From Thermoflexales bacterium (GTDB lineage Bacteria > Chloroflexota > Anaerolineae > B4-G1), in assembly GCA_007118795.1 (NCBI GenBank), contig SKQX01000195.1:1-38403 (forward strand): a stretch of DNA of 38,403 nucleotides, written 5' to 3'. Below, piece by piece: positions 3,233-37,096 of the stretch. A model generated the notes under the pieces. That model did no database searches. It saw only the letters and a program-made list of their open reading frames with translations, and was not told where the DNA came from. Position 1 is the first letter of the stretch. Every line of letters starts with the position of its first letter. Made by a program: the position numbers and the translations under genes.

Positions 3233-6200
3233 TCACGGTTCTTGTCGGGCGACTACCATCAACGTGACGTCGTCGGACGCAGGATTGTCGCCGACAAAGG
3301 CATCGAGGCTATGGAGAACAGCCCTTAGGCTCTCGCTGGCGGATGCATCGCGATCCAGCGTTTGAATGACATCTCGAAGTCGATCCTCCCCGTAGAAGGT
3401 CCCCGCGGGAGATAGGGCCTCTGTAACACCGTCGGTGTAGAGGATCATGCTGTCCCCCGGCTCTAGCACAGTCTCGTGCGCTCCGTACCGCACGTTCTCC
3501 AGAACACCGAGGGCTATCTGGCCCTTCGGGAGTTCCTCGAGCTTCTGCGTCCCGTCTCGCCGAATGAGCGGCGGATGATGTCCCGCGCTGGCATACTCCA
3601 GCTGGCCGGTTTCCAGCGACAAGATTCCATAGAGGGCCGTGACGAACATGCCGTGTCGGGCATCGGGCACGAGTAGTTCATTAACACGCGTCAGAACATC
3701 TGCCGGCGAGCGCCCCTCCGCTGCAGCAGCCCGCATCAAGGTTCGGGTGAGCGCCATGAACAAGGCGGCTCCGATGCCCTTGTCGGCTACGTCGGCGATG
3801 ACCAGGCCGAGCCGGTCCTGGGGAAGCTCAAAGACGTCATAGAAATCACCAGCCACCTCCCGCGCTGCTCGCCAAGTTGACGCCAGCCCCCAGCCCGGAG
3901 GATCCGGCAGGTGCTCTGGCATGAAGGCCTCTTGAATACCCCGAGCCAGCTGCAGTTCTCGCTCCAAGCGTTCTCTTTGGGCCATCTCTTGTTGTAGGAG
4001 GTCGTTCTGAACAGCGAGGGCGGCTTGCTGGGCGATACCGGTGATGATCTCACGCCTCCGCTCATCGAGGCCGACAGGCCGGTCCATTTCTCCGATGAGC
4101 ATCACGCCGAGCACATTGCCCTTCACCGAGAGCGGAGCACCCACGAGCACGCCCACTCCATCCATCCTCTGCTCTGACAGTTCTGCCAACCATTGCTCGG
4201 GAACAAGCAGCTGTATCTCCTCAAGCCCGTGGAGGACGATCAGCTGGTTGCCATCCCGCACGCCGTCAAGGAGCGGAAATTCGCCGAGTGCAAAGATGTG
4301 TCCGGACGGGGGGCCCCCGTACGCCTGCATGGTTTCGAACACTTGTTCCTCGTCGCTCCAGAGAAGAATGGTACACCATTCGACTCCGACCAGCATGGGA
4401 GTAATGCGGACTATGGCTCCCAGTATGGCGTCCAGCTCATTGAGACTGACGACCGCCTGGGCAACCTGAAGCAGTGCGGCGGAGACGTACGCCTCCTCCT
4501 GGCGGGCCTCCAGGAGCCGAGCGTTCTCGGCGGCCGCCGCAGCCTGGTATGCCACGCCGCGCATGATGGCTAGCCGTTCCTGGTGCATGGCCTCGGGCTC
4601 GCGGATGTACTCCTCGCTCTGTTGGTCGACAAGCATTGCCCCCAACACGTCGCCGTGGGCCATAAGGGGCAAGAGCAGTGGGGAATCAAAGGAGCGCAAA
4701 GGGGCTGGCAGCGAGTCCGAGTCCGGACCCGTCCGAATCTCGAGCAACACGGCGTCATCGAGGACGAGGAGTTCGTCGAACTGAGCTATCTCGCCCGGTC
4801 TGATCTCGATCTGATCGAAGATCTGTCGCTCATCGTGGTCGAGTCCGCAGGCAGCCGCGGGTAAGAAAGCGTCACTCGGCTCGTCCCAGAGGAATAGCGC
4901 ACAGCGCTGGACCCCGACCAGCATGGGCATCAGGTGGACCACCGTGTCGAGCACCTCCTCCAGGGTCCCCAACGATTGCGTCGCCTCGGCCACCTGGAGC
5001 AGCACAGTGGATACATATGCCTGCTCTTGAGCCGCCTGCAAGAGACGTGTGTTCTCAATAGCGACCGCGGCGTAACTGGCGAAGGTGGCGGTCATGGCCC
5101 TGGATTCTCGCCCGTACTGATCGGGCATCCTGTGAGCGAGCATCAGTAGACCCAGTGGACGATCTCCTGCACGCAAAGGAGCCGCGATAGCCGAGTACTC
5201 AGGCTCAAAACCGAGGGCTTCCCCGAGGGGCTCAACAAGACCCGCTGACTCCCGCACAACAGGTCCCTCAGCGTACAGAGCTTGACGCAGCCAGGCATCG
5301 GCATCGAGCAGCGACGGATCTACACACATCCACTCCGTGGTGCCGTGGACCGCAGAGAGGCAAAGCACGTCTTCTTGCATCAGCCAGATGGCCGAGGCAT
5401 CGCAAGGCACGAGCTTCTCCAGCGCCGATAGAATCTCGTCGAGGACCTCATCGAGCTCAATGCCAGCCGAGAGGAGCAAGGCCACGTCGCGCATGCGGTC
5501 AGCGACTTGTCGGCGCCATCGCTCCGATTGGTAAAGATTTGCGTTGCGGATGGCAATGGCGATGCTGTCCGCCAGTGCCTCGAACACAAAACGATCCTCC
5601 TGAGTGAAAGCGTTCGGCTGGTCGCTCTGGACATCAAGTACACCCAACACATCCCCGCCAAAGACGAGGGGTACCGCAAGTTGGGCACGGGCATCGGCGA
5701 CGGGAGCTGCTAGAGGCCGATAGCGGGGATCCGACTGAACGTCATTGGAGAGCAGTGTCTCGCCGTGGCATGCCACCCAGGCCACAACACCTTCCGTGTC
5801 GGACAGGTCACAGACTGGCTCGACGACATCAAACTCGGCTGGATCGCGGGGAGGCCATCCTGTGCGGTACAACACCTTTTGCTCCACGGGATCCAGGGTA
5901 TGAAGATGGACGTAGGGGTAACCGAACTGCTGATGGATAAGAGCGGCAACCCTGCGCAATAACTCGTCCAGATCGAGGACAGAAGCCACGGCGCGACCAA
6001 CCTCGGCGACGGCAGAGAGCTGATCAGCACGACGGCGCAGATCGGTGTACAGGCGAGCGCCCTCGACAGCGATGGCAATTTGGTCCGCCAGGGCGCGGAG
6101 GACCAGCAGATCTGTCTCATCGAAACGCTCCGACTGATCACTCTGCACATCGAGGACACCCAGGACTCGTTCCTTGATCTTGAGCGGCAGTGCTGCCTCG

Positions 6201-6988
6201 GATTTGGTCTCGGGAAGCACGTCGACGTGGCGGTAGTGAGGCTCGTGGCTCACGTTGCCCGCGATGATCTCCTCCCCCGTCTCCGCTACCTGCCCGACGA
6301 TTCCCTGACCTAGCCGGACTGACGGCCTCGGAGCCTGGCTGTCGCCGCCCTCCTGGACGAAGAGGGACGGTCCAGCACTTCCTCGACACACCAAGTTCTC
6401 CTGGTCGGGCTCCAGAGTGAACAGAGCAGCATAGTAATATCGGAAGGTTCGAAGGACAAGGCGTGTAACCCGTAGGGCGAGCTCGTCCAGATCGAGCAAG
6501 GTCGCCACCTCGGCGCTGACCGAGCGGACCAGAGAGAGCTGGTCCACCCGCCAGCGTTCAACGGCCACCTTCCGACCAGCCTCCAGAGCCGTTCCAGCCT
6601 GGGCCGCGAGACCCAGCAGCAGCGCTTGTTCATCTTCAGTGAAAGGGGGACCCTGGGTACGTCTCGCTTCCAGGACGCCGAGAGAGAGAGCGGGAGTTCG
6701 AAGAGGCAGTGCGATGACCGTCGGCTCAATGAAGGCGCCGTCCTGCTCCAGGGCACGATGCATGGCCGCCGAGAGAGGCGCAGAGGGGATTCCCACTCTC
6801 TCTGGTTCGGACACGCCCAGCGCCGCTGCATTAAGCCAGAGCGTGGCTTCGGCTTCAACCAGATCTGTAGTGGCCTCCAGAATCAGATCTTGCTGAGACG
6901 ATAGCCCAGGTTGGGCCATCAGCTCGTGACCTAGCTCGATAAGGCGGCGCCAATCGTTTCGTACAGAGGACTTAACCGTAGGGTTCAT
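3233..6988 (-). CDS. Six-GAF-domain sensor fused to a C-terminal PP2C/SpoIIE serine phosphatase (RsbU/RsbP-like)
   Basis: The protein is 1251 aa. Six GAF-like modules each end in a characteristic helix: AAQAGTALEAGRKV, ADQIAIAVEGARLY, ADSIAIAIRNANLY, ASYAAVAIENTRLL, AYQAAAAAENARLL, AQQAALAVQNDLLQ. The C-terminus has PP2C motifs: GDFYDVF, LVIADVADKGIGAALFM, ASAGHHPP, LYTDGVTEA, DDVTLMVV. Confidence 0.9.
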   Translation of the reverse strand: MNPTVKSSVRNDWRRLIELGHELMAQPGLSSQQDLILEATTDLVEAEATLWLNAAALGVSEPERVGIPSAPLSAAMHRALEQDGAFIEPTVIALPLRTPALSLGVLEARRTQGPPFTEDEQALLLGLAAQAGTALEAGRKVAVERWRVDQLSLVRSVSAEVATLLDLDELALRVTRLVLRTFRYYYAALFTLEPDQENLVCRGSAGPSLFVQEGGDSQAPRPSVRLGQGIVGQVAETGEEIIAGNVSHEPHYRHVDVLPETKSEAALPLKIKERVLGVLDVQSDQSERFDETDLLVLRALADQIAIAVEGARLYTDLRRRADQLSAVAEVGRAVASVLDLDELLRRVAALIHQQFGYPYVHLHTLDPVEQKVLYRTGWPPRDPAEFDVVEPVCDLSDTEGVVAWVACHGETLLSNDVQSDPRYRPLAAPVADARAQLAVPLVFGGDVLGVLDVQSDQPNAFTQEDRFVFEALADSIAIAIRNANLYQSERWRRQVADRMRDVALLLSAGIELDEVLDEILSALEKLVPCDASAIWLMQEDVLCLSAVHGTTEWMCVDPSLLDADAWLRQALYAEGPVVRESAGLVEPLGEALGFEPEYSAIAAPLRAGDRPLGLLMLAHRMPDQYGRESRAMTATFASYAAVAIENTRLLQAAQEQAYVSTVLLQVAEATQSLGTLEEVLDTVVHLMPMLVGVQRCALFLWDEPSDAFLPAAACGLDHDERQIFDQIEIRPGEIAQFDELLVLDDAVLLEIRTGPDSDSLPAPLRSFDSPLLLPLMAHGDVLGAMLVDQQSEEYIREPEAMHQERLAIMRGVAYQAAAAAENARLLEARQEEAYVSAALLQVAQAVVSLNELDAILGAIVRITPMLVGVEWCTILLWSDEEQVFETMQAYGGPPSGHIFALGEFPLLDGVRDGNQLIVLHGLEEIQLLVPEQWLAELSEQRMDGVGVLVGAPLSVKGNVLGVMLIGEMDRPVGLDERRREIITGIAQQAALAVQNDLLQQEMAQRERLERELQLARGIQEAFMPEHLPDPPGWGLASTWRAAREVAGDFYDVFELPQDRLGLVIADVADKGIGAALFMALTRTLMRAAAAEGRSPADVLTRVNELLVPDARHGMFVTALYGILSLETGQLEYASAGHHPPLIRRDGTQKLEELPKGQIALGVLENVRYGAHETVLEPGDSMILYTDGVTEALSPAGTFYGEDRLRDVIQTLDRDASASESLRAVLHSLDAFVGDNPASDDVTLMVVARQEP

Positions 6989-7074: not shown

Positions 7075-7530
7075 TCAACTGCCGGTCTCCTTGTGCTTCA
7101 CCAGGGTCAACACATTACCGCCCCCCGGCTCGAAGTCGAATTGGACCTCATCCATAATCTTCCGGATAAGATGGAGGCCCAATCCCCCCCCGTTTCTGTC
7201 TCGGAGATCGGCACTAAGGTTTGGCTCGGGCACCGACTGCGGATCGAACCGGTCACCATGATCCCGGAGAACGACAGTCATGAGGTCGTCCTGGACGTGA
7301 TACGTACATTCGATGGTACCGGACCCTTCACCGCCGTAGGCGTGCTCGATGATATTGGAGCAAGCCTCGTCTACGGCCAATCGCACCTGATAGGCAGTGC
7401 AATCATCAAAGCTCGCCTGGTCAGCTGCCCCAGCCACGAACTCATCGATGGCGGCCAGGCTCTCGTACTGAGCAACGAAAACCCGTGTCTCTGTCCTGTC
7501 CATCTGAACGACCGGAGTGTCTGAAATCAA
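7075..7530 (-). CDS. Partner-switching serine kinase / anti-sigma-type HATPase_c protein (RsbW/SpoIIAB-like)
   Basis: It has the N-box VDEACSNIIEHAY and the G-box GGGLGLHLIRKIMDEV. The start is uncertain: TTG at 7530 or ATG at 7503. Neither has a clear SD. Confidence 0.85.
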   Translation of the reverse strand: MISDTPVVQMDRTETRVFVAQYESLAAIDEFVAGAADQASFDDCTAYQVRLAVDEACSNIIEHAYGGEGSGTIECTYHVQDDLMTVVLRDHGDRFDPQSVPEPNLSADLRDRNGGGLGLHLIRKIMDEVQFDFEPGGGNVLTLVKHKETGS

Positions 7531-7580
7531 GTCTGAACCGATCTTAGTCTATCTAGCCGGCGCCACGGCGGGCCGCGACG

Positions 7581-7916
7581 CTAGAAGCTCCCCACGGCCT
7601 CCATTGTGTCATCGTAGAAGCTAAAAAGAGGCACAAAACCAGCCAGATCGAAGGATTTCCAGATGGGCTCGGGAACGTTCGCCAAGGCCAACTCCCCACG
7701 GTTCAAGCGCTGGCAAGTCTTCTGAGTGTCGATCAAGACCCTTAAGCCCGCACTGGATATGAAGTCAGTGTCACTCAAATCTAAGACGATGTTATATTGC
7801 CCTTGCTCCATGAGATCGTCTAGGACTGCTGCCAACTGTGGTGCCGTAGCGCTGTCGACGCGTCCTGAGACCTCGACGACGGTACTCCGCTTGAACTCCC
7901 TCGTGGCAATCTCCAT
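7581..7916 (-). CDS. STAS-domain anti-anti-sigma factor (RsbV/SpoIIAA-like)
   Basis: The sequence VVEVSGRVDSATAPQL...IVLDLSDTDFISSAGLRVL carries the conserved phosphorylatable Ser context DFISSAGL. The SD GGAGG (complement of 7922-7926) is 5 nt from the ATG. Confidence 0.9.
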   Translation of the reverse strand: MEIATREFKRSTVVEVSGRVDSATAPQLAAVLDDLMEQGQYNIVLDLSDTDFISSAGLRVLIDTQKTCQRLNRGELALANVPEPIWKSFDLAGFVPLFSFYDDTMEAVGSF

Positions 7917-7957
7917 GTCAACCTCCTTATCACGCCGAATGAGCTCGAGGAACGGAG

Positions 7958-7986
7958 ATTATACCACGATGCCAGATGCGGAACAA
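7958..7986 (-). promoter_or_regulatory. Promoter of the STAS-kinase-phosphatase operon, TTGTTC-N17-TATAAT on the minus strand
   Basis: Plus-strand ATTATA at 7958-7963 is minus-strand TATAAT. Plus-strand GAACAA at 7981-7986 is minus-strand TTGTTC. The spacer is 17 nt. Confidence 0.4.
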
Positions 7987-8003
7987 GAAGACCTCCGACT
8001 GGG

Positions 8004-8032
8004 TTGAAGAATCATGGGGTCTCCAGTAGAAT
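8004..8032 (+). promoter_or_regulatory. Sigma70-type promoter TTGAAG-N17-TAGAAT, back to back with the STAS operon promoter
   Basis: TTGAAG is at 8004-8009 and TAGAAT at 8027-8032. The predicted transcription start is near A8039. The first usable start codon with an SD is 520 nt downstream, at 8563. Confidence 0.45.
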
Positions 8033-8038
8033 GGACGT

Positions 8039-8530
8039 AGTATGAGGTTGCAGGTACAGAGAACATGGGCAGCCTGGGTAACCCCAGCTAGAGCGGTATG
8101 CGAATGACACTCCCTGGGTGAAGTAGTCTGCGCGATTGGCATGGGGATGAGGTCGGACCTGACCGCCTGCTGCTGATGGAGCTGAAAGCAAGTATCATTG
8201 CGAACCAGGGGAGGGAGCCGGTGCTAAGAGCGCTACTGCCGGTCGCTACCAAGGAAGTGGTGGTCTTGCGCAACCGCAGGAGGTCGAGTTTGCAAGCAGA
8301 TGCCACAGGCGGCTTAGGGCTCGTTGAAGCGGTAGAGACACGGTGGACGAGGCGTGCTTAGCCAAGGACGCTGGACATGAGCGAGACACCGGAAGGTGTT
8401 GGCCTGACGCCACTCGGTTGAGCTGCGTGGCTAACCGCAAGCGGGGCCCTCGTGGGAAGCTTCTTCCATTGAGAGGTACGCACGCACAACAGTTCGCTCA
8501 GACAGACGGGGACCTGCTACCTCATCCCGT
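8039..8530 (+). ncRNA. Candidate large structured RNA or very long structured 5' leader of the VOC gene (unclassified)
   Basis: All three plus frames carry frequent stops. The region starts right after the 8004-8032 promoter. ATGAGGTTGCAGGT (8042-8055) pairs 13/14 with ACCTGCTACCTCAT (8512-8525). Internal hairpins are CTGGG-TAAC-CCCAG (8074-8087) and ACACC-GGAA-GGTGT (8386-8399, a GNRA loop). I found no match to RNase P, tmRNA, SRP, 6S or any riboswitch core I know. Confidence 0.3.
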
Positions 8531-8562
8531 TTACCGCTGGGCCAAAGTGTAGGAGGTTTGAG

Positions 8563-8910
8563 ATGGAGACTCGACTTACGCACGTCAGGGCGAATGTGCG
8601 GAAGCTCCAGGAAGCGGTCGCCTGGTACTCGGAGATGCTGGGCTTCGAAGTACAGAATGTGTGGCCGCCCGATGGACCCAACTACGTCGATTTCGTGTCT
8701 GCAGAGGGTGCCGCTTTTTCGCTTATGGTCGCGGACCCGGTGCCTTCTGGCGGTCGATTCAACTTCTCGGTCAGAAACGTCGACACCCTATGGCGCGCCT
8801 TGAGGGAAAGGGTGGAGGTGGTCGAACCGCTGTTCGAGACGGCGTATGGGAGTCGCAAGTTCACCATCCGAGACCTGGATGGCAACGAATTGGGTTTCGT
8901 AGAAGGGTAA
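8563..8910 (+). CDS. VOC/glyoxalase-bleomycin resistance family protein
   Basis: The 115-aa protein reads THVRANVRKLQEAVAWYSEMLGFEV...FTIRDLDGNELGFVEG, a typical single VOC module. The SD AGGAGG (8551-8556) is 6 nt upstream of the ATG. Confidence 0.85.
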   Translation: METRLTHVRANVRKLQEAVAWYSEMLGFEVQNVWPPDGPNYVDFVSAEGAAFSLMVADPVPSGGRFNFSVRNVDTLWRALRERVEVVEPLFETAYGSRKFTIRDLDGNELGFVEG

Positions 8911-8933
8911 GCACTTCGGACGCGGAGCCTCGG

Positions 8934-8964
8934 AGCAGCGTCTCGCGGGAAGAGACACGCTGCT
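8934..8964 (+). terminator. Hairpin downstream of the VOC gene
   Basis: AGCAGCGTCTC, loop GCGGGAA, then GAGACACGCTGCT, with one bulged A. It has only a weak T-tract. Confidence 0.3.
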
Positions 8965-9090
8965 GGAATTGTGCGGATGGGGAACTGAGTTGAACCGCTC
9001 AACCGTGGGCTGTCCGAAGGGAAGGCGGCAACTCAGAGAGCTAGTAGAGACCACGGCGTCAGGTAGGGCTGGGGCAGTGGTTCCCCAGCA

Positions 9091-9125
9091 ATCGAAGAAG
9101 CCCCGAGACTGACAAATCTCGGGGC
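9091..9125 (-). terminator. Rho-independent-type terminator of kbl
   Basis: On the minus strand GCCCCGAGA-TTTGTCAG-TCTCGGGGC forms a perfect 9-bp stem (9100-9125). It is followed by TTCTTCGAT, 33 nt after the kbl stop. Confidence 0.55.
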
Positions 9126-9157
9126 TCCATCCCTGCTTGCCTACAGCCAGAGAAGAT

Positions 9158-10360
9158 CTAGATGAGAGCCAGTTGCTCCCCGCCCTTCCTGAAGGCTTGT
9201 ACGGCGGTGTCCAGCTGATCCGTGGTGTGTTCGGAGCAGAGTTGGACCCGAATCCTGGCCTTGTCCCGGGCGACCATCGGGTAGACGATGGGCAGCACGT
9301 ATATGCCCTCTTGCCAGACGAAATCCGCCAGTTCTTTAGCCGTCTTACTGTCGCCGCACATGATGGGCACGATGGGCGTCTCACTGTGGCCGGTGTCGAA
9401 ACCGAGCTCCTTCATCTTGTCCAAGAAGTAAGCCCGATTATCCCATACCCGTTCGACGCGCTCTGGGTTCTCCGTCATAACGTCTATGGCCGCGACTGTC
9501 GCCGCCGCAACTCCGGGCGGCAGGGCTCCGCTCAGCAACCAGGTGCGAGCCTTGTTCATGGAGAAGTTGATTAGCTCCTCGCTTCCGCTAATATGACCAC
9601 CCACGATGCCGAAGGCCTTGGAGAAGGTGCCCATCTCGGCGTGGACCTGATCACGAGTGAGTCCGAAATGGTTGACAATGCCCCGTCCCCCCTCTCCGAG
9701 TACCCCCTCGCCGTGCGCGTCGTCGACGTAGACACCAGCCCCGTGTTCCGCGGCGATCTCGGCGATCTGGGGCAACGGAGCCAGATCACCATCCATGCTG
9801 AAAACTCCATCCGTGACGATCCATATGTGCTCGTATGTGGGCTGATGAGTCTCAGCTTCCTCCATGATGCGAGCCAGATCGTCGACGTCTTTGTGCCTGT
9901 AGATGGCCTTGTCGGCCTTGGTCAGGCGGATGCCGTCAATGATGGAGCCGTGGTTCAGCTCATCGGAGACATAGAGATCACCGGCTCCGGCGAGCTGCGA
10001 GACAATACCCTGGTTGGTCATGTAACCGGTCTGGAAGGTGAGGGACGCCGGGGCCCCTTTGAACTCCGCGAGGCGCCGATCGAGGGCGCGGTGGAGGGAC
10101 ATGTCTCCCGCGATGGAGCGATCGCTCCCCGCCCCTGCGCCATATTTTTCGGTGGCAGCGATCATAGCGTCGACGACACGAGGGTGGGTCGATAGGTTCA
10201 GGTAGTTGTTGGAACAGAGCACAATCACCTGTCTGCCCTCAACCAGCGAGGTGGGCTCGCTAGGTCCCTGGAGCTCGCGGGGTTCCCAGGTCAGTCCCTC
10301 CTCCTTCAAGCGTTCATACTCATCACCCAGGTACTCAATTGGTTCTCGTCCGATTGTCAT
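9158..10360 (-). CDS. kbl: Glycine C-acetyltransferase (2-amino-3-ketobutyrate CoA ligase)
   Basis: This is an alpha-oxoamine synthase fold: NNYLNLSTHPRV, DELNHGSIIDGIRL, YVDDAHGEG, and the PLP-lysine context GTFSKAFG. It is adjacent to tdh. I prefer the ATG at 10360, where GGGAGG sits 8 nt upstream, over the track TTG at 10390. Confidence 0.9.
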   Translation of the reverse strand: MTIGREPIEYLGDEYERLKEEGLTWEPRELQGPSEPTSLVEGRQVIVLCSNNYLNLSTHPRVVDAMIAATEKYGAGAGSDRSIAGDMSLHRALDRRLAEFKGAPASLTFQTGYMTNQGIVSQLAGAGDLYVSDELNHGSIIDGIRLTKADKAIYRHKDVDDLARIMEEAETHQPTYEHIWIVTDGVFSMDGDLAPLPQIAEIAAEHGAGVYVDDAHGEGVLGEGGRGIVNHFGLTRDQVHAEMGTFSKAFGIVGGHISGSEELINFSMNKARTWLLSGALPPGVAAATVAAIDVMTENPERVERVWDNRAYFLDKMKELGFDTGHSETPIVPIMCGDSKTAKELADFVWQEGIYVLPIVYPMVARDKARIRVQLCSEHTTDQLDTAVQAFRKGGEQLALI

Positions 10361-10457
10361 CTGTGTGACCTCCCGTTTCGCTATGGTCAAGTCGTGTATC
10401 GCAGCAGGTAGAGGCTGATCCGAAATGCCAGGGAGTGGAACTCCGGTCTGCTCCCTC

Positions 10458-20934: not shown

Positions 20935-21057
20935 GCCCAGCTGACCATTGGGGACGTCTAACCGATGGTCGAGTTGGTAGCCTCACCAGCGACGAGGGCA
21001 CGGGGAAGTGAGAAAGCAGGTGAGGAGCGGTGGTGGACGGTAGGAGGCAACAGAGAT

Positions 21058-22080
21058 ATGGGACAGAGGGGCGAATGGATCCCACCCAACGCGCCACTTA
21101 GCGAGGAATACTGGCAGTCATTGTTGCGCGATGGGGCGAACAGGGGGGAGGCGTTGGCTGCCCGGGACCCGGGCCGCTGGGATGACGAGATCACAGAAGA
21201 ACCCACGACCCATGCAGGGCCTGGCGAGGGCAACCCCATTGACGATGCGTGGAGAGAAGCACGCACTCTTATGGACGAGGGCCAAGTAGTGGAGTTGCCC
21301 GTCGTCGGGTGCAACAGAGGCGGACTGCTCGTGGAGTGGAAAGGTCTGCAGGGTTTCGTTCCCGCTTCTCACCTGCAGAGTCTAACTCCTATGGGAGGGC
21401 AAGCGGAGCGACAGGAGGAGTTACGCCATCTGATCGGGACCAGATTACCATTGCGGGTCATCGAGTTGGATCCAACCAGCCATCGGTTCGTGCTCTCCGA
21501 GCGGACCGGTGACGCTGCTGACCCATCTGGCGAGCAGATATGGAGCACCCTGGAGCCCGGCGACGTCTGCGAAGGGCGCGTCACGAATCTCTGCTCCTTC
21601 GGTGCTTTCGTCGATTTGGGTGGCTTCGAGGGGTTGATCCATATTTCGGAATTGTCCTGGGGCCGGGTGGGGCATCCCGCTGACGTACTGGAGGTCGGGG
21701 AGACCTTGGAAGTCTACGTGTTGAACGTCGAACCAGAGCGAGAGCGAGTTGGATTGAGCATCAAGCGCCTCCAGCCCAACCCCTGGGAGTCCGTGGACGA
21801 GCGGTACGCAGTTGGTGAGCTTGTGGACGGAACCGTCACCCACGTTGTGGACTTCGGCGCCTTTGTTCAGGTGGAAGAAGGGCTAGAGGGCCTGGTCCAC
21901 GTCTCGGAGTTGCCCTCGGGGAGCGCAGACAATCCTCACGCCATCGTGCAAGAGGGTGACCGAGTCTCGGTTCAGGTGCTCGACGTCGACAGAGCGCGAC
22001 GGAGAATGGGACTGCGGCTCGAGCAAGTGCAAGTCGGCGCTGAGATCCGAGGATCCGATGACCGGGAGACCGAAGGGTAG
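21058..22080 (+). CDS. S1 RNA-binding domain protein (three S1 repeats, ribosomal protein S1-like)
   Basis: Repeated S1 cores are GLLVEWKGLQGFVPASH, GRVTNLCSFGAFVDLGGFEGLIHISEL and GTVTHVVDFGAFVQVEEGLEGLVHVSEL. I prefer the ATG at 21058, with AGGAGG 10 nt upstream, over the track start at 20965. Confidence 0.85.
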   Translation: MGQRGEWIPPNAPLSEEYWQSLLRDGANRGEALAARDPGRWDDEITEEPTTHAGPGEGNPIDDAWREARTLMDEGQVVELPVVGCNRGGLLVEWKGLQGFVPASHLQSLTPMGGQAERQEELRHLIGTRLPLRVIELDPTSHRFVLSERTGDAADPSGEQIWSTLEPGDVCEGRVTNLCSFGAFVDLGGFEGLIHISELSWGRVGHPADVLEVGETLEVYVLNVEPERERVGLSIKRLQPNPWESVDERYAVGELVDGTVTHVVDFGAFVQVEEGLEGLVHVSELPSGSADNPHAIVQEGDRVSVQVLDVDRARRRMGLRLEQVQVGAEIRGSDDRETEG

Positions 22081-22101: not shown

Positions 22102-24279
22102 ATGAACAAGAGCCGGAGCCCGTGGCAGCCAGGATCGATCCTGGTTAGCCCGCTAGTCCCCCAGGTGACAGCGCTGCTGGTGATCGCGCTGGGAACGATC
22201 ACCCTGTTGGCGGTGTTCGGCGTCGCCGACGGTCACTGGGTGAACGCGTGGGTCGATCTTCTGCGCTATCTCGTGGGCTGGGGCGTTTATCCGGCGGGCG
22301 CTTCCATCGTGTTGGCGGGTCTTCTGTGGCTCCAGTATCTCTTGGATCAAGTGGTTCTCTGGCGATGGCGTCCCTTCGTCGGTGCCGAGCTGGTGTTCTT
22401 CAGTCTCCTGGGACTAACCCACGTCATACTAGGCGGTACCGATCCTTGGGCATTAGTAGAGCACGGTGGAGGCGGGGGGCTTCTCGGCTGGGGGATCTCG
22501 ATTTTCCTCCTGACCTATGTGGGATGGCTACCTGCGGTGGTTGTGCTGTCCGCCTTCTTCGTCATGGGTCTGGGACTTGCCTTTGACGTAACAGCGGACG
22601 ACCTAAGGCAGACACTGGAAGTGGTGCGGGGGGGCATCGCTTCCTATCGGGCGCAGCGTGCCCGCAGGCGATCGGTAGGGGAGTCGCCAGTATCCGCGGA
22701 GAGACGACCTGGGCCTGCCGCCGACCCCACGGAGACGAATCCTCCCCGGTCGCCGACCCGATCGTCTCAGTCCATATCGAAGCGCAGGACCATCGAGCAG
22801 GGACGCCAGTCTGCCCTGCCGCCTATCAGCCTCCTTGATGAGTCGGAGGGCCCTCCCTTGACGGATCAGCAGGTGCGTCGAAAGGCACAGATCATCAAGG
22901 AGACTCTGGCGCAGTTCGGGCTGCCGGTGGAGGTCGTCGAGGTACGGATGGGCCCCGCCGTGACCCAGTTTGGCGTCGAGCCGGGCTTCGTGGAGCGCGC
23001 CCGCTCCAGTGAGCGGAAGGTACGTGTCCGGCAGATAAGCCAGCGATCGGACGATCTTGCTCTGGCGCTGGCGACGCCTCGCCTGCGCGTTGAAGCTCCC
23101 GTACCCGGTAGACCTTTCGTGGGTATTGAGGTACCCAACGAGGAGATACAGGTGGTCAGCATCCGCGAGGTCTTGACCTCGGACCCGTTTCGAACGGTGG
23201 ATTCGTGTCTGGCGATCGCCTTGGGTCACGACGTGGCAGGCCAGTCAGTTGTGGCGGACCTCGCCGAGATGCCACATCTCCTGATTGGCGGAACCACCGG
23301 TTCCGGGAAGTCCGTGTGTATCAAGTCGATCACGGCCTGCCTGATCTGTAACAACACCCCTGACGAACTGCGCCTGGTGATGATCGACCCCAAGATGGTG
23401 GAATTGGTCCGGTTCAACGGGCTGCCCCACATCTACGGAGAGGTCGAGGTTGACCTAGACCGAGTCGTCAAGGTTCTCCGCTGGGTAGCTCTGGAGATGG
23501 ACGAGCGCTACAGGCGATTCGCGGATGCTTCGGCACGCCATCTTGATGACTACAACCGCAAGATGGCCGAGGAGGGCAAGCCAGTTCTGCCGCGAATTGT
23601 TGCATTGATCGACGAGTTGGCCGACTTGATGATGCTGGCGCCCGAGGCGGTGGAGCAGCTGCTATGTCGCATCGCGCAGATGGGCCGGGCTACGGGGATA
23701 CACCTCATCGTGGCAACCCAGCGGCCCAGCACCGACGTCATCACCGGGCTGATCAAGGCAAATTTCCCGGCGCGGATTTCCTTCGCCACCGCGAGCCAAG
23801 TGGACTCAAGGGTCATCCTAGATACCCAGGGCGCGGAGACGCTCCTCGGAGACGGCGATATGCTCTATCTGGCGGCGGATGCCAGCCATCCCGTCCGGGT
23901 GCAGGGGTGTTACGTCGGGTCAGAGGAACTGGATCGCATCATCGGTTTCTGGCGAAGAGAGACGGGACCAGTCGAGGAGACGACTCCGTGGGCGCAGATG
24001 GTGGGGCCCGACGTAGCCGTCGATGCCGAGGGCGAACCGTACGACCCTGACTACGTCGATGAGGAGATGCTTCAGCGGGCCATTTCTCTGGTGAGAGAAC
24101 GGGGAACTGCCTCAGCCTCACTCTTGCAACGGCGCCTGCACGTCGGCTATCCGCGGGCCGCGCGTCTGATGGAAGTTATGACAGAGATGAACATCATCGG
24201 CCCGCCTGTTGCTGGTGGCCGCAGACGAGACGTGCTGATTGAGGGCCATGATGAGAATCTCCCCGACGTTGCGTCCTGA
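22102..24279 (+). CDS. ftsK: DNA translocase FtsK/SpoIIIE
   Basis: It has N-terminal TM helices, a Pro/Arg-rich linker, the motor with Walker A GGTTGSGKS and Walker B ALIDELADLMM, and a gamma winged-helix domain (ASLLQRRLHVGYPRAARLMEVM). Confidence 0.95.
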   Translation: MNKSRSPWQPGSILVSPLVPQVTALLVIALGTITLLAVFGVADGHWVNAWVDLLRYLVGWGVYPAGASIVLAGLLWLQYLLDQVVLWRWRPFVGAELVFFSLLGLTHVILGGTDPWALVEHGGGGGLLGWGISIFLLTYVGWLPAVVVLSAFFVMGLGLAFDVTADDLRQTLEVVRGGIASYRAQRARRRSVGESPVSAERRPGPAADPTETNPPRSPTRSSQSISKRRTIEQGRQSALPPISLLDESEGPPLTDQQVRRKAQIIKETLAQFGLPVEVVEVRMGPAVTQFGVEPGFVERARSSERKVRVRQISQRSDDLALALATPRLRVEAPVPGRPFVGIEVPNEEIQVVSIREVLTSDPFRTVDSCLAIALGHDVAGQSVVADLAEMPHLLIGGTTGSGKSVCIKSITACLICNNTPDELRLVMIDPKMVELVRFNGLPHIYGEVEVDLDRVVKVLRWVALEMDERYRRFADASARHLDDYNRKMAEEGKPVLPRIVALIDELADLMMLAPEAVEQLLCRIAQMGRATGIHLIVATQRPSTDVITGLIKANFPARISFATASQVDSRVILDTQGAETLLGDGDMLYLAADASHPVRVQGCYVGSEELDRIIGFWRRETGPVEETTPWAQMVGPDVAVDAEGEPYDPDYVDEEMLQRAISLVRERGTASASLLQRRLHVGYPRAARLMEVMTEMNIIGPPVAGGRRRDVLIEGHDENLPDVAS

Positions 24280-32761: not shown

Positions 32762-32862
32762 AGTTCCCCCGCTGCCCGCGAAGATCAAGAGCTTGTGCAT
32801 CGATGCTATCACTCATATTATACCAAACTCGCTTCTCCGCGCACACTTACCGATCTACACGT

Positions 32863-32891
32863 TTGTCAGTCGCGGACAGATGCCGTATAAT
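32863..32891 (+). promoter_or_regulatory. Sigma70-type promoter TTGTCA-N17-TATAAT driving the small islet that ends with brnT/brnA
   Basis: TTGTCA is at 32863-32868 and TATAAT at 32886-32891. Confidence 0.45.
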
Positions 32892-33466
32892 GCCTTAGAT
32901 CGAAGCACCTCCGCTATAAGACCGACAAGCGTCCGACGTCCATGAGCGCAGTGTACAAAGGGAGCAGTGCTCGAATTCCGGAGACTGTTCTAAGAGTACT
33001 GGGAGGACTGGGCCTGGTGAGTACAATGGTCCCGTGGGATGTGATCTCCCTCGTTGGATGGCTACTACTCGCTTCCTGCGGGGCAGCGGAAGCGCCGAGG
33101 CCCCGCGCGATCCAGCCAACCCCTCCACCGGTCGCCCAGGCTGGCAGGCACCAAGTGGCGAAGCTGCGCCTGCCCCCGTGCGTACGAAGAGCCGGTGCGT
33201 CAGACCGATCTGTGCGACGCATCAGACCATTGGCGGGTCATCGATAGCCCCCGCAGGTACGCGCCCACCGTGGAGATGGCGTTGGTGGCCGGTATTGAGG
33301 CATTGCTGGACTATGGCCCCGTCATCGAGCCGACCGGGGTGCGACAAGCTGTCACCGCCTATCAGAAAGCACACCCGTTCTGGCTTCCTCTCACTGTCAA
33401 TCGGATGAGTGATCTGGCCCACGCGCGGTCTGTGGAAGAGCCGCTGAGTGAGTGAGAGGGTGTTCT

Positions 33467-33750
33467 GTGGGCATATGGTTTGAGTGGGATTCCGAGAAAG
33501 CAGAGACGAACCTAAAGAAGCACCAAGTGGCATGCGGCGAAGCCGCAACAGTGTTCGGCGATCCGTTGTCTCTGACGTTTGATGATCCTGACCATTCAAT
33601 CGAAGAGCAGCGGTTCATCACCATGGGGATGTCTCGATCGGGGATCTGCTCATTGTCTCGCACGCAGATCGAGGTGACCGGATACGCATCATCAGTGCGC
33701 GAAGACCAACATGCCGAGAGAGGAAGCTCTATGAGGAATATGGGCAATAG
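33467..33750 (+). pseudogene. brnT: BrnT-family (DUF497) toxin gene interrupted by a frameshift at a G4 run
   Basis: Frame A reads (V)GIWFEWDSEKAETNLKKHQVACGEAATVFGDPLSLTFDDPDHSIEEQRFITMGMSRSG up to GGGG (33640-33643). The canonical continuation DLLIVSHADRGDRIRIISARRPTCRERKLYEEYGQ* is in the -1 frame (33643-33750). One extra G would restore a typical ~95-aa BrnT. Confidence 0.7.
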
Positions 33751-33958
33751 AGGGGTTAACGATGAGCTTCGCCCTGAGTACGATCTGTCCCAGCTCCGGG
33801 AAGCTGCCAGGGGGAAGTATGTGGAGCGCTACAACGAAGGCACGAATCTGGTGCCTCTGGACCCGGACTTGGCAAAGGCATTCTCCGACGATGAGGCAGT
33901 GAACGAGGCACTCCGACTGCTCATCAAGATTGCTAGCACTCACGTTGATGGCGAGTGA
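33731..33958 (+). CDS. brnA: BrnA-like antitoxin partner of BrnT (75 aa)
   Basis: MRNMGNRGVNDELRPEYDLSQLREAARGKYVERYNEGTNLVPLDPDLAKAFSDDEAVNEALRLLIKIA is the pattern I recognise from partners of DUF497 toxins. Its ATG overlaps the restored toxin 3' end by 20 nt, a typical TA arrangement. Confidence 0.65.
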   Translation: MRNMGNRGVNDELRPEYDLSQLREAARGKYVERYNEGTNLVPLDPDLAKAFSDDEAVNEALRLLIKIASTHVDGE

Positions 33959-36076: not shown

Positions 36077-37096
36077 TCACTCAGCCCAGAATGGGTCCCT
36101 CGTGTACTTGAGACCGCCATCGGGGAGCAGGGTCACCAGGAGCCCCCGAGTTAAGGTCCTACCGACCCGCAGAGCTGCTGCCACAGCTGCCCCGGACGAG
36201 ACACCCACAAAGAGTCCCTCGTTGCGCGCCAGTCGACGGGCCACATCGCGGGCCTCCTCGGTACTGATTGCCTGGATCAGATCCACCAGACTCGGGTCGT
36301 AAGTGCCGGGCAGATCCGCCGTCTTCAGGTGCTTCAGCCCGGAGATTCCGTGCCGGGGCCTGTCAGGCTGTACACCGACCAGTTGCACATCGTGGTTCCG
36401 CGCCCTGAGATAAGCACCCACTCCCGTCATCGTGCCGCCGGTACCCAGGCCAGCGACGAAGTGTGTGATCCGTCCGCCAGTTTGTGCCCAGATCTCCGGC
36501 CCCGTGGACGTGGCGTGGGCCAACGGATTGGCCGGATTGTTATACTGATCCGCGTGGAAGAAGCGGGCAGGCTGCCTGTGGGCCAACCGCTGTGCAGCCT
36601 GACGGGCCCCCTCGGTCCGATTCGCTGGGTCGGTGAAGACGAGCTGAGCTCCGTAGGCACGCAAGATCTGCACCCGCTCCAGACTGACGTCGGCCGGCAG
36701 CATTAGCTGGACGGGAAAACCTAAAGCCGCGCCCAGCATGGCGTAGGCGATACCGGTGTTTCCCGACGTGGCGTCGAGCAGGGTCCTGCCGCGGGCCAGA
36801 TTCCCACGGCAGAGGGCCCGGCGAACGATGAGAAGGGCAGGCCGATCCTTGACGCTTCCGCCCGGATTGAGGCCTTCGAGCTTGACGTGGAGGGCGACCT
36901 CAGGAGCCAGCGCGCCCGTCACTCGCTTGAGCGGGACCAACGGTGTGTTCCCAATGAGCGATACAACCGTGGGAGTGCTGGGCTCCTGCGGGGGCGAGGG
37001 TTGGAGGTGCTGGCCCCCTTCGGGGACAAATGGATGTTCGCTTTCGTGCAAAGCGGCAATAGTTTGCCGCAGTTCGAGCTGGTGCGCTCTGTGCAT
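36077..37096 (-). CDS. PLP-dependent cysteine synthase family protein (CysK/CysM/CBS-like) with a ~45-aa N-terminal extension
   Basis: Motifs are IGNTPLVPL, the PLP lysine in NPGGSVKDRPAL, SGNTGIAYA and GTGGTMTG. I prefer the ATG at 37096, preceded by GGGAGGAAACG, over the track GTG at 37219. Confidence 0.85.
   Translation of the reverse strand: MHRAHQLELRQTIAALHESEHPFVPEGGQHLQPSPPQEPSTPTVVSLIGNTPLVPLKRVTGALAPEVALHVKLEGLNPGGSVKDRPALLIVRRALCRGNLARGRTLLDATSGNTGIAYAMLGAALGFPVQLMLPADVSLERVQILRAYGAQLVFTDPANRTEGARQAAQRLAHRQPARFFHADQYNNPANPLAHATSTGPEIWAQTGGRITHFVAGLGTGGTMTGVGAYLRARNHDVQLVGVQPDRPRHGISGLKHLKTADLPGTYDPSLVDLIQAISTEEARDVARRLARNEGLFVGVSSGAAVAAALRVGRTLTRGLLVTLLPDGGLKYTRDPFWAE

Follow-up and report, generated by a model that had tools for sequence, protein, structure and literature searches.

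A long spacer between divergent promoters in Thermoflexales: probable drifting leader of a VOC gene in place of a large structured RNA

Background

Can a long intergenic stretch that follows a promoter, holds no evident gene and has complementary ends be taken for a large structured RNA? The question is raised by a contig (SKQX01000195.1) of a Thermoflexales bacterium (assembly GCA_007118795.1), the analysed stretch of which, 38,403 nt in length, is termed the window here. An earlier interpretation made from the letters of this DNA (henceforth the sequence-only reading) had singled out a gap of about 645-646 bp (7917-8562) between a minus-strand STAS operon and a plus-strand VOC gene, and had offered two readings of it, namely a giant leader or a large structured RNA that a P1-like helix would close. 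If true, a conserved closed domain of ~500 nt would be a new large bacterial non-coding RNA from the Chloroflexota, a group from which, to our knowledge, few large non-coding RNAs have been described. A literature search on large non-coding RNAs in Chloroflexi yielded nothing relevant. Below, the layout, phyletic spread, folding, coding potential and repeat content of the gap are examined, and the explanations that they suggest are weighed.

Results and discussion

Layout of the spacer and its flanking genes

The genes of the operon to the left of the spacer specify an anti-sigma antagonist (STAS), an anti-sigma kinase and a GAF/SpoIIE phosphatase of 1251 aa. The spacer ties with a second gap (32813-33451) for the longest in the window and harbors no convincing gene, in agreement with the sequence-only reading. 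The accompanying statement that no run exceeds about 35 codons was mistaken, since two longer start-to-stop ORFs lie on the plus strand, one of 61 aa (8176-8361) and one of 69 aa (8343-8552). Conservation within the spacer is highest in the STAS 5' UTR, where 35 bases are invariant, in both promoters and at the ribosome-binding site of the VOC gene (Table 1). The 35-nt block of the STAS 5' UTR, which immediately precedes the start codon, is invariant in the window and in the related loci L007 and L004 and shows a single difference in L022. This suggests that the STAS-kinase-phosphatase operon has a leader or operator under constraint here. Further invariant blocks inside the stretch leading to the VOC gene are short, namely TGCTGATGGAG (8171-8181), GACGCCACT (8406-8414) and GACAGACGGGGACC (8501-8514). 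Conservation is lowest at 8037-8096 (45-60% identity), which holds the 5' arm of the proposed helix and one of the hairpins discussed below.

The second gap, ~640 nt in length and also ORF-poor, lies upstream of a 168-aa ORF (33452-33958). A BrnT toxin domain makes up the N-terminal half of this ORF (Pfam E = 2e-14), and its C-terminal half has, by eye only, the appearance of a fused antitoxin-like segment.

Table 1. Features of the STAS-VOC spacer and its surroundings, in window coordinates
Feature	Position	Strand	Basis or remark
STAS gene	7581-7916	minus	left border of spacer
STAS 5' UTR with ribosome-binding site	7917-7951	minus	35-nt block, three-way invariant run
STAS promoter-like site TTGTTC-17-TATAAT	7958-7986	minus	read from sequence
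Promoter-like site TTGAAG-17-TAGAAT	8004-8032	plus, toward VOC	consensus scan
Non-coding stretch, putative ~520-nt VOC 5' leader	8039-8562	plus	near-neutral rate; large indels in relatives
5' arm ATGAGGTTGCAGGT	8042-8055	plus	13/14 complement; not conserved
Segment with second, tandemly expanded copy in L004 6455-6805	8233-8474	plus	nhmmer E = 3e-9, 9e-8
3' arm ACCTGCTACCTCAT	8512-8525	plus	13/14 complement; also complements 8144-8153
VOC ribosome-binding site AGGAGG	8551-8556	plus	invariant across relatives
VOC/glyoxalase-family gene, 115 aa	8563-8910	plus	Pfam PF00903, E = 6e-13; 212 homologues
Other 13/14-or-better complements, in genes	3290-3787, 4983-5398, 6525-6809, 21016-21376, 22828-22905, 36355-36610		

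Phyletic spread, synteny and rate of divergence

The exact VOC protein recurs on a contig of the MAG GCA_007125335.1 as well as on two ENA contigs, with the spacer identical too. Beyond these, a homologous spacer was recovered only from L022 (96% identity), L004 (equivalent to L021, a Thermoflexales MAG) and L006/L007 (GCA_003566235.1). Where L004 and L021 overlap they are nearly identical, and both L004, over its aligning parts, and L006/L007 show 73% identity to the window. A pattern of 21 specified bases derived from the best-conserved block retrieved a single true relative from the genome collection, again the Chloroflexota MAG of L021, and one chance match (L020) from metagenomes. Orthologues of the VOC gene at 81% and 76% identity reside beside ClpB (L008) and an ABC permease (L009/L010), and the DNA upstream of them in all three loci is unrelated to the spacer. 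Orthologues of the STAS operon (76-81% identity), in turn, have a gene of 164 aa next to them, together with a radical SAM gene. Thus, the STAS-VOC adjacency is lost just outside the group, and the spacer lies at a synteny breakpoint specific to this lineage.

Within the group the spacer diverges at a near-neutral rate. Comparison with L022 shows differences at 22 of the 524 leader sites (95.8% identity), and the references from the same pair are 94.8% for 4-fold sites of the VOC gene, 96.6% for this gene overall and 90.6% for the downstream spacer. Against L004 and L007 the aligned spacer identity is 73%, versus about 59-67% at 4-fold sites of the flanking genes (75% for STAS). This amounts to at most a weak excess of identity over the 4-fold sites, a part of which is expected from alignment optimisation. 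The spacer does align better than two other intergenic regions that were compared. Superimposed on the substitutions are large indels: L004 lacks 90 nt that the window has (8284-8373), carries an internal duplication of 37 nt and contains an insertion of ~170 nt.

The surroundings of the VOC gene have also undergone repeated gene gain and loss. An aminotransferase gene (Aminotran_1_2, 9158-10390) that lies 3' of the VOC gene in the window is absent from L004 and L006, where an epimerase gene directly follows the VOC gene.

The long-range complement

The central observation behind the proposed closed domain, a complementarity in 13 of 14 positions between 8042-8055 and 8512-8525, is correct; no other such pair exists in 8039-8562, and the minimum-free-energy fold includes it. 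The sequence-only reading had further estimated that such a pair is expected well under once by chance, and this holds against dinucleotide shuffles (n=2000), among which any 13/14 helix arose in 2%, one spanning at least 300 nt in 0.35% and an end-to-end one in 0.05% (1 in 2000). In the genome itself, however, such helices are not rare: the 38-kb window contains seven distinct complements of 13/14 or better within 524-nt spans, six of them inside protein-coding genes. These seven set an empirical background of about one in every 5.5 kb, which for a region as long as this one comes to roughly 0.1, and the real genome is a fairer background for the rarity of the helix than are shuffles. The 3' arm, moreover, has a second candidate partner, as GGGATGAGGT (8144-8153) and ACCTCATCCC (8519-8528) form a perfect 10-nt complement, which renders the pairing partner ambiguous; neither L004 nor L007 has kept this second pairing.

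The closing helix decays in the relatives, from 13/14 in the window and L022 to 11/14 in L004 and 8/14 in L007. Across the alignment it displays one compensatory pair, seven of its pairs have been disrupted in one or more lineages, and 60 of 500 shuffles were equally good. To all appearances, the complementarity of the two ends arose by chance, is confined to this genome and to its 96%-identical sibling, and does not represent a conserved closing helix.

Folding and structural conservation

The sequence-only reading had failed to match the region to several known RNA classes. Searches with Rfam 15, the families of which include OLE, GOLLD, ROOL, HEARO, riboswitches, RNase P, 6S and tmRNA, at gathering thresholds returned no match in the window, L004, L007 or L011, and a search of 7900-9200 at E<=10 returned only noise with E>1, namely eukaryotic lncRNA and snoRNA models. 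ARAGORN found no tRNA or tmRNA genes. The predicted fold of 8039-8562 (-199.8 kcal/mol) is no more stable than those of its dinucleotide shuffles (-201.4 +/- 5.7; z = +0.29), and excess stability is equally lacking on the minus strand (z = +0.09). The corresponding values are +0.91 for L007 and -1.41 for L004 (20 shuffles only).

Comparison of the relatives likewise failed to recover a shared fold. The RNAalifold structure conservation index of 0.39-0.54 over six sub-windows equals the column-shuffle null in all of them. Pairs of the best window fold that remain standard (Watson-Crick or G-U) make up a fraction of 0.953 in L022, 0.675 in L007 and 0.556 in L004, versus 0.954, 0.698 and 0.575 under random placement, and of the pairs hit by a change 27-30% survive versus 35-37% expected. 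Double changes number 16 versus 8.6 in shuffles; since a slid control gives 14, nearly the same count, this excess is no evidence for structure. The best fold of L007 pairs the 5' end with position ~230 and not with the 3' end, and end-to-end folding is absent from the relatives. Both hairpins that the sequence-only reading had picked out, ACACC-GGAA-GGTGT (8386-8399) and CTGGG-TAAC-CCCAG (8074-8087), are present in the sequence; the stem of the former, which is GNRA-capped, changes from ACACC/GGTGT to ACACC/GGTAT in L004 and to AAACC/GGCAT in L007, with pairs broken. In the consensus fold of a repeated ~115-nt unit the covariation term is positive, i.e. a penalty. All these covariation tests draw upon four lineages only and have limited power.

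Thus stability, conservation index, helix decay and pair retention all speak against the large structured RNA with a P1-like closing helix. A novel RNA of this kind finds no support, given a neutral-like rate, large indels, confinement to one sub-lineage and the lack of structural conservation. Since the region drifts almost neutrally and its helix is not kept in relatives, it is better viewed as an ordinary long spacer or leader.

Promoters and the putative VOC leader

The promoter-like site facing the VOC gene, which the sequence-only reading had identified, is the sole match in 7500-9400 of a scan of the consensus type, which weak or non-sigma-70 promoters may escape. No other plus-strand promoter-like site was reported within the spacer, and this one occupies the same aligned place in three lineages. 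Its counterpart reads TTGAAA-17-TAGAAT in L007 and TTGGAA-17-TAGAAT in L004, with the TAGAAT hexamer invariant. The back-to-back site facing the STAS operon falls below the threshold of the scan; its -10 hexamer and the element ATTATACCAC (7958-7967) are invariant, and its -35 is weak. The plus-strand composition of the intervening stretch (GC skew +0.18, 57% purine) resembles that of the VOC sense strand. Near the VOC orthologues that occur elsewhere, weak promoter-like hexamers can be seen by eye close to the gene, which the scan did not report.

Given this conserved and sole plus-strand site and the sense-like composition, the VOC gene is most likely read from 8004-8032 via a leader of ~520 nt, the firing of the promoter and the read-through into the gene both being predictions. 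What would mark a long leader, a conserved upstream promoter with none closer to the gene, is what the consensus scan found. Hence, of the two readings originally offered, the structured RNA lacks support and the giant leader is retained as a plausible but unremarkable interpretation, to which the single plus-strand promoter conserved in three lineages points. Across the four lineages no constraint on sequence or structure is detectable in this leader, and some weak constraint beyond the promoters may still act on it.

L004 has, within the ~170-nt insertion in its leader, a terminator-like hairpin (3832-3846) comprising GCACCACAGAGGTGC followed by ATTTTT. If functional, this hairpin would argue against read-through into the VOC gene in that genome, where another promoter would then be needed.

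Repeat content and alternative explanations

The 8233-8474 segment of the leader has a second copy in L004, which sits between the divergent epimerase and GH31 genes and contains five tandem repeats of a 17-nt unit (GGCTTAGCTTCGCACGC) along with a duplicated unit of ~65 nt. The ~65-nt unit is also duplicated in the STAS-VOC spacer of L004 (3597-3745), as is the 3' part of the segment (~8420-8472), and the epimerase-GH31 spacer of L006 contains pieces of these modules. These observations, together with the large indel turnover of the spacer, raise the possibility that a core at ~8170-8474 represents one copy of a dispersed repeat or non-autonomous mobile element, a MITE- or REP-like mosaic inserted between the promoter and the VOC gene. 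Two copies lie within 8 kb in L004 and one in the 38-kb window, and further copies were found neither there, where three repeat modules were sought, nor in ~350 kb of related loci. Comparison of the L004 junctions, blurred by other indels, with L006 and the window revealed neither terminal inverted repeats nor target-site duplications; plasmid and phage collections gave no match; and no look-alike ORF family emerged from 1.8 billion representative proteins, the one extra match being an unrelated repetitive protein. We regard insertion of such an element as unlikely; the repeats fit indel-prone, occasionally duplicated intergenic DNA and are insufficient for a mobile-element call. Conceivably, the transcript starting at 8039 folds via the 8042/8512 helix as a functional RNA or regulatory leader of recent, lineage-restricted origin that controls VOC translation or stability, an idea consistent with the conserved plus-strand promoter, the rarity of the end-to-end helix in shuffles, its presence in the best fold and the identity slightly above that of 4-fold sites. 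It also has a potential mechanism, in that the ACCTC of the 3' arm complements both GAGGT (8045-8049) and the ribosome-binding site (GGAGGT). This ACCTC is lost in the relatives, being ACTGC in L004 and CCCTA in L007, where the helix itself has decayed; the folding results equal their nulls; and upstream of the VOC orthologues found elsewhere the DNA is unrelated, with weak promoter-like hexamers read close to the gene. Such control appears quite improbable. A riboswitch or cis-regulatory element proper to the VOC gene finds no support, as none recurs upstream of the orthologues in L008, L009 and L010, and neither does a conserved expression platform, given the lack of a terminator-like site in the window leader and the loss of the candidate anti-ribosome-binding-site element in L004 and L007. 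A variant that combines both ideas, with the core at ~8170-8474 as a copy-and-paste cis-element of Thermoflexales divergent promoter regions within a young lineage-specific regulatory RNA or leader whose helix evolved recently in this genome, is very improbable.

A different line of reasoning concerns the possibility that the spacer hides a small protein gene, for instance the 61-aa ORF from the ATG at 8176, or a decayed pseudogene. The 61- and 69-aa ORFs have been called as genes in two public assemblies, the ATG lies in the invariant TGCTGATGGAG and the ORF begins there in all lineages; furthermore, relatives possess a real gene in the equivalent place, as a conserved 164-aa ORF divergent from STAS lies upstream of it in L011 (2344-2838), L015 and L018 and is missing from the lineage of the window. 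That this ORF, which has no Pfam match and an odd, Leu/Ser/Arg-rich composition, is a genuine gene follows from its mismatches by codon position (59:29:92). The spacer, in contrast, is flat in codon phase over the whole leader and every segment (54:50:51 versus L007 and 46:43:43 versus L004; p = 0.92 and 0.93). L007 has a 1-nt deletion within the 61-aa ORF, and no ribosome-binding site precedes 8176. Among 5.8 billion proteins the 61-aa ORF has no homologue besides itself, a search of 1.8 billion representatives with the 69-aa ORF returned, besides itself, a single unrelated repetitive protein of 656 aa, and none of seven ORFs tested from both strands matches Pfam. Descent of the spacer from the 164-aa gene as a pseudogene was rejected, since tblastn, a profile of the protein run against six-frame translations and a nucleotide profile of the upstream region of the relatives all failed to find a match in the spacers. 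A hidden gene or pseudogene is thus exceedingly unlikely. The explanation that we favor, to which we assign a probability of about 0.72, is that of a weakly constrained, non-coding spacer between divergent promoters, which would be transcribed as a long VOC leader.

Comparison with known systems

The favored explanation places the locus close to the long 5' leaders and divergent-promoter spacers of bacteria, with which it shares back-to-back sigma-70-type promoters, an ORF-free stretch that extends up to a strong ribosome-binding site and a plus-strand composition that matches the sense strand of the downstream gene. It differs from typical long leaders in that its ~520 nt lie at the long end and no attenuator, riboswitch or protein-binding motif is recognised in it. 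The resemblance to large bacterial RNAs such as OLE, GOLLD, ROOL, HEARO and raiA lies in a size of ~500 nt, the ORF-free character, proximity to a promoter and a long-range helix that could in principle close a domain. Unlike them, the spacer has no covariance-model match, excess stability or conserved or covarying structure, differs by large indels among close relatives and is missing from relatives just beyond one sub-lineage. The tandemly duplicated modules, their copying to another intergenic region of a relative and the rapid indel turnover are reminiscent of REP/BIME-type elements and MITEs; however, unlike these, the modules total two copies among the loci examined, with no terminal inverted repeats or target-site duplications seen.

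Conclusions

A lone long-range complement combined with an ORF-free gap is insufficient to call a structured RNA in a genome of 58% G+C, the sequence of which yields about one such complement in 5.5 kb, mostly in genes. Four relatives at 4-27% divergence are enough to decide the structured-RNA question here, though their power for covariation is limited, and the comparative evidence speaks against a new large non-coding RNA of the Chloroflexota. The spacer would have arisen at a genome rearrangement in one Thermoflexales sub-lineage, and it carries two conserved back-to-back sigma-70-type promoters. From the plus-strand one of these, transcription of the VOC gene would proceed through a ~520-nt leader whose sequence is probably free to drift, and part of which (8233-8474) may consist of indel-prone modules that were also copied to another intergenic region in a relative.
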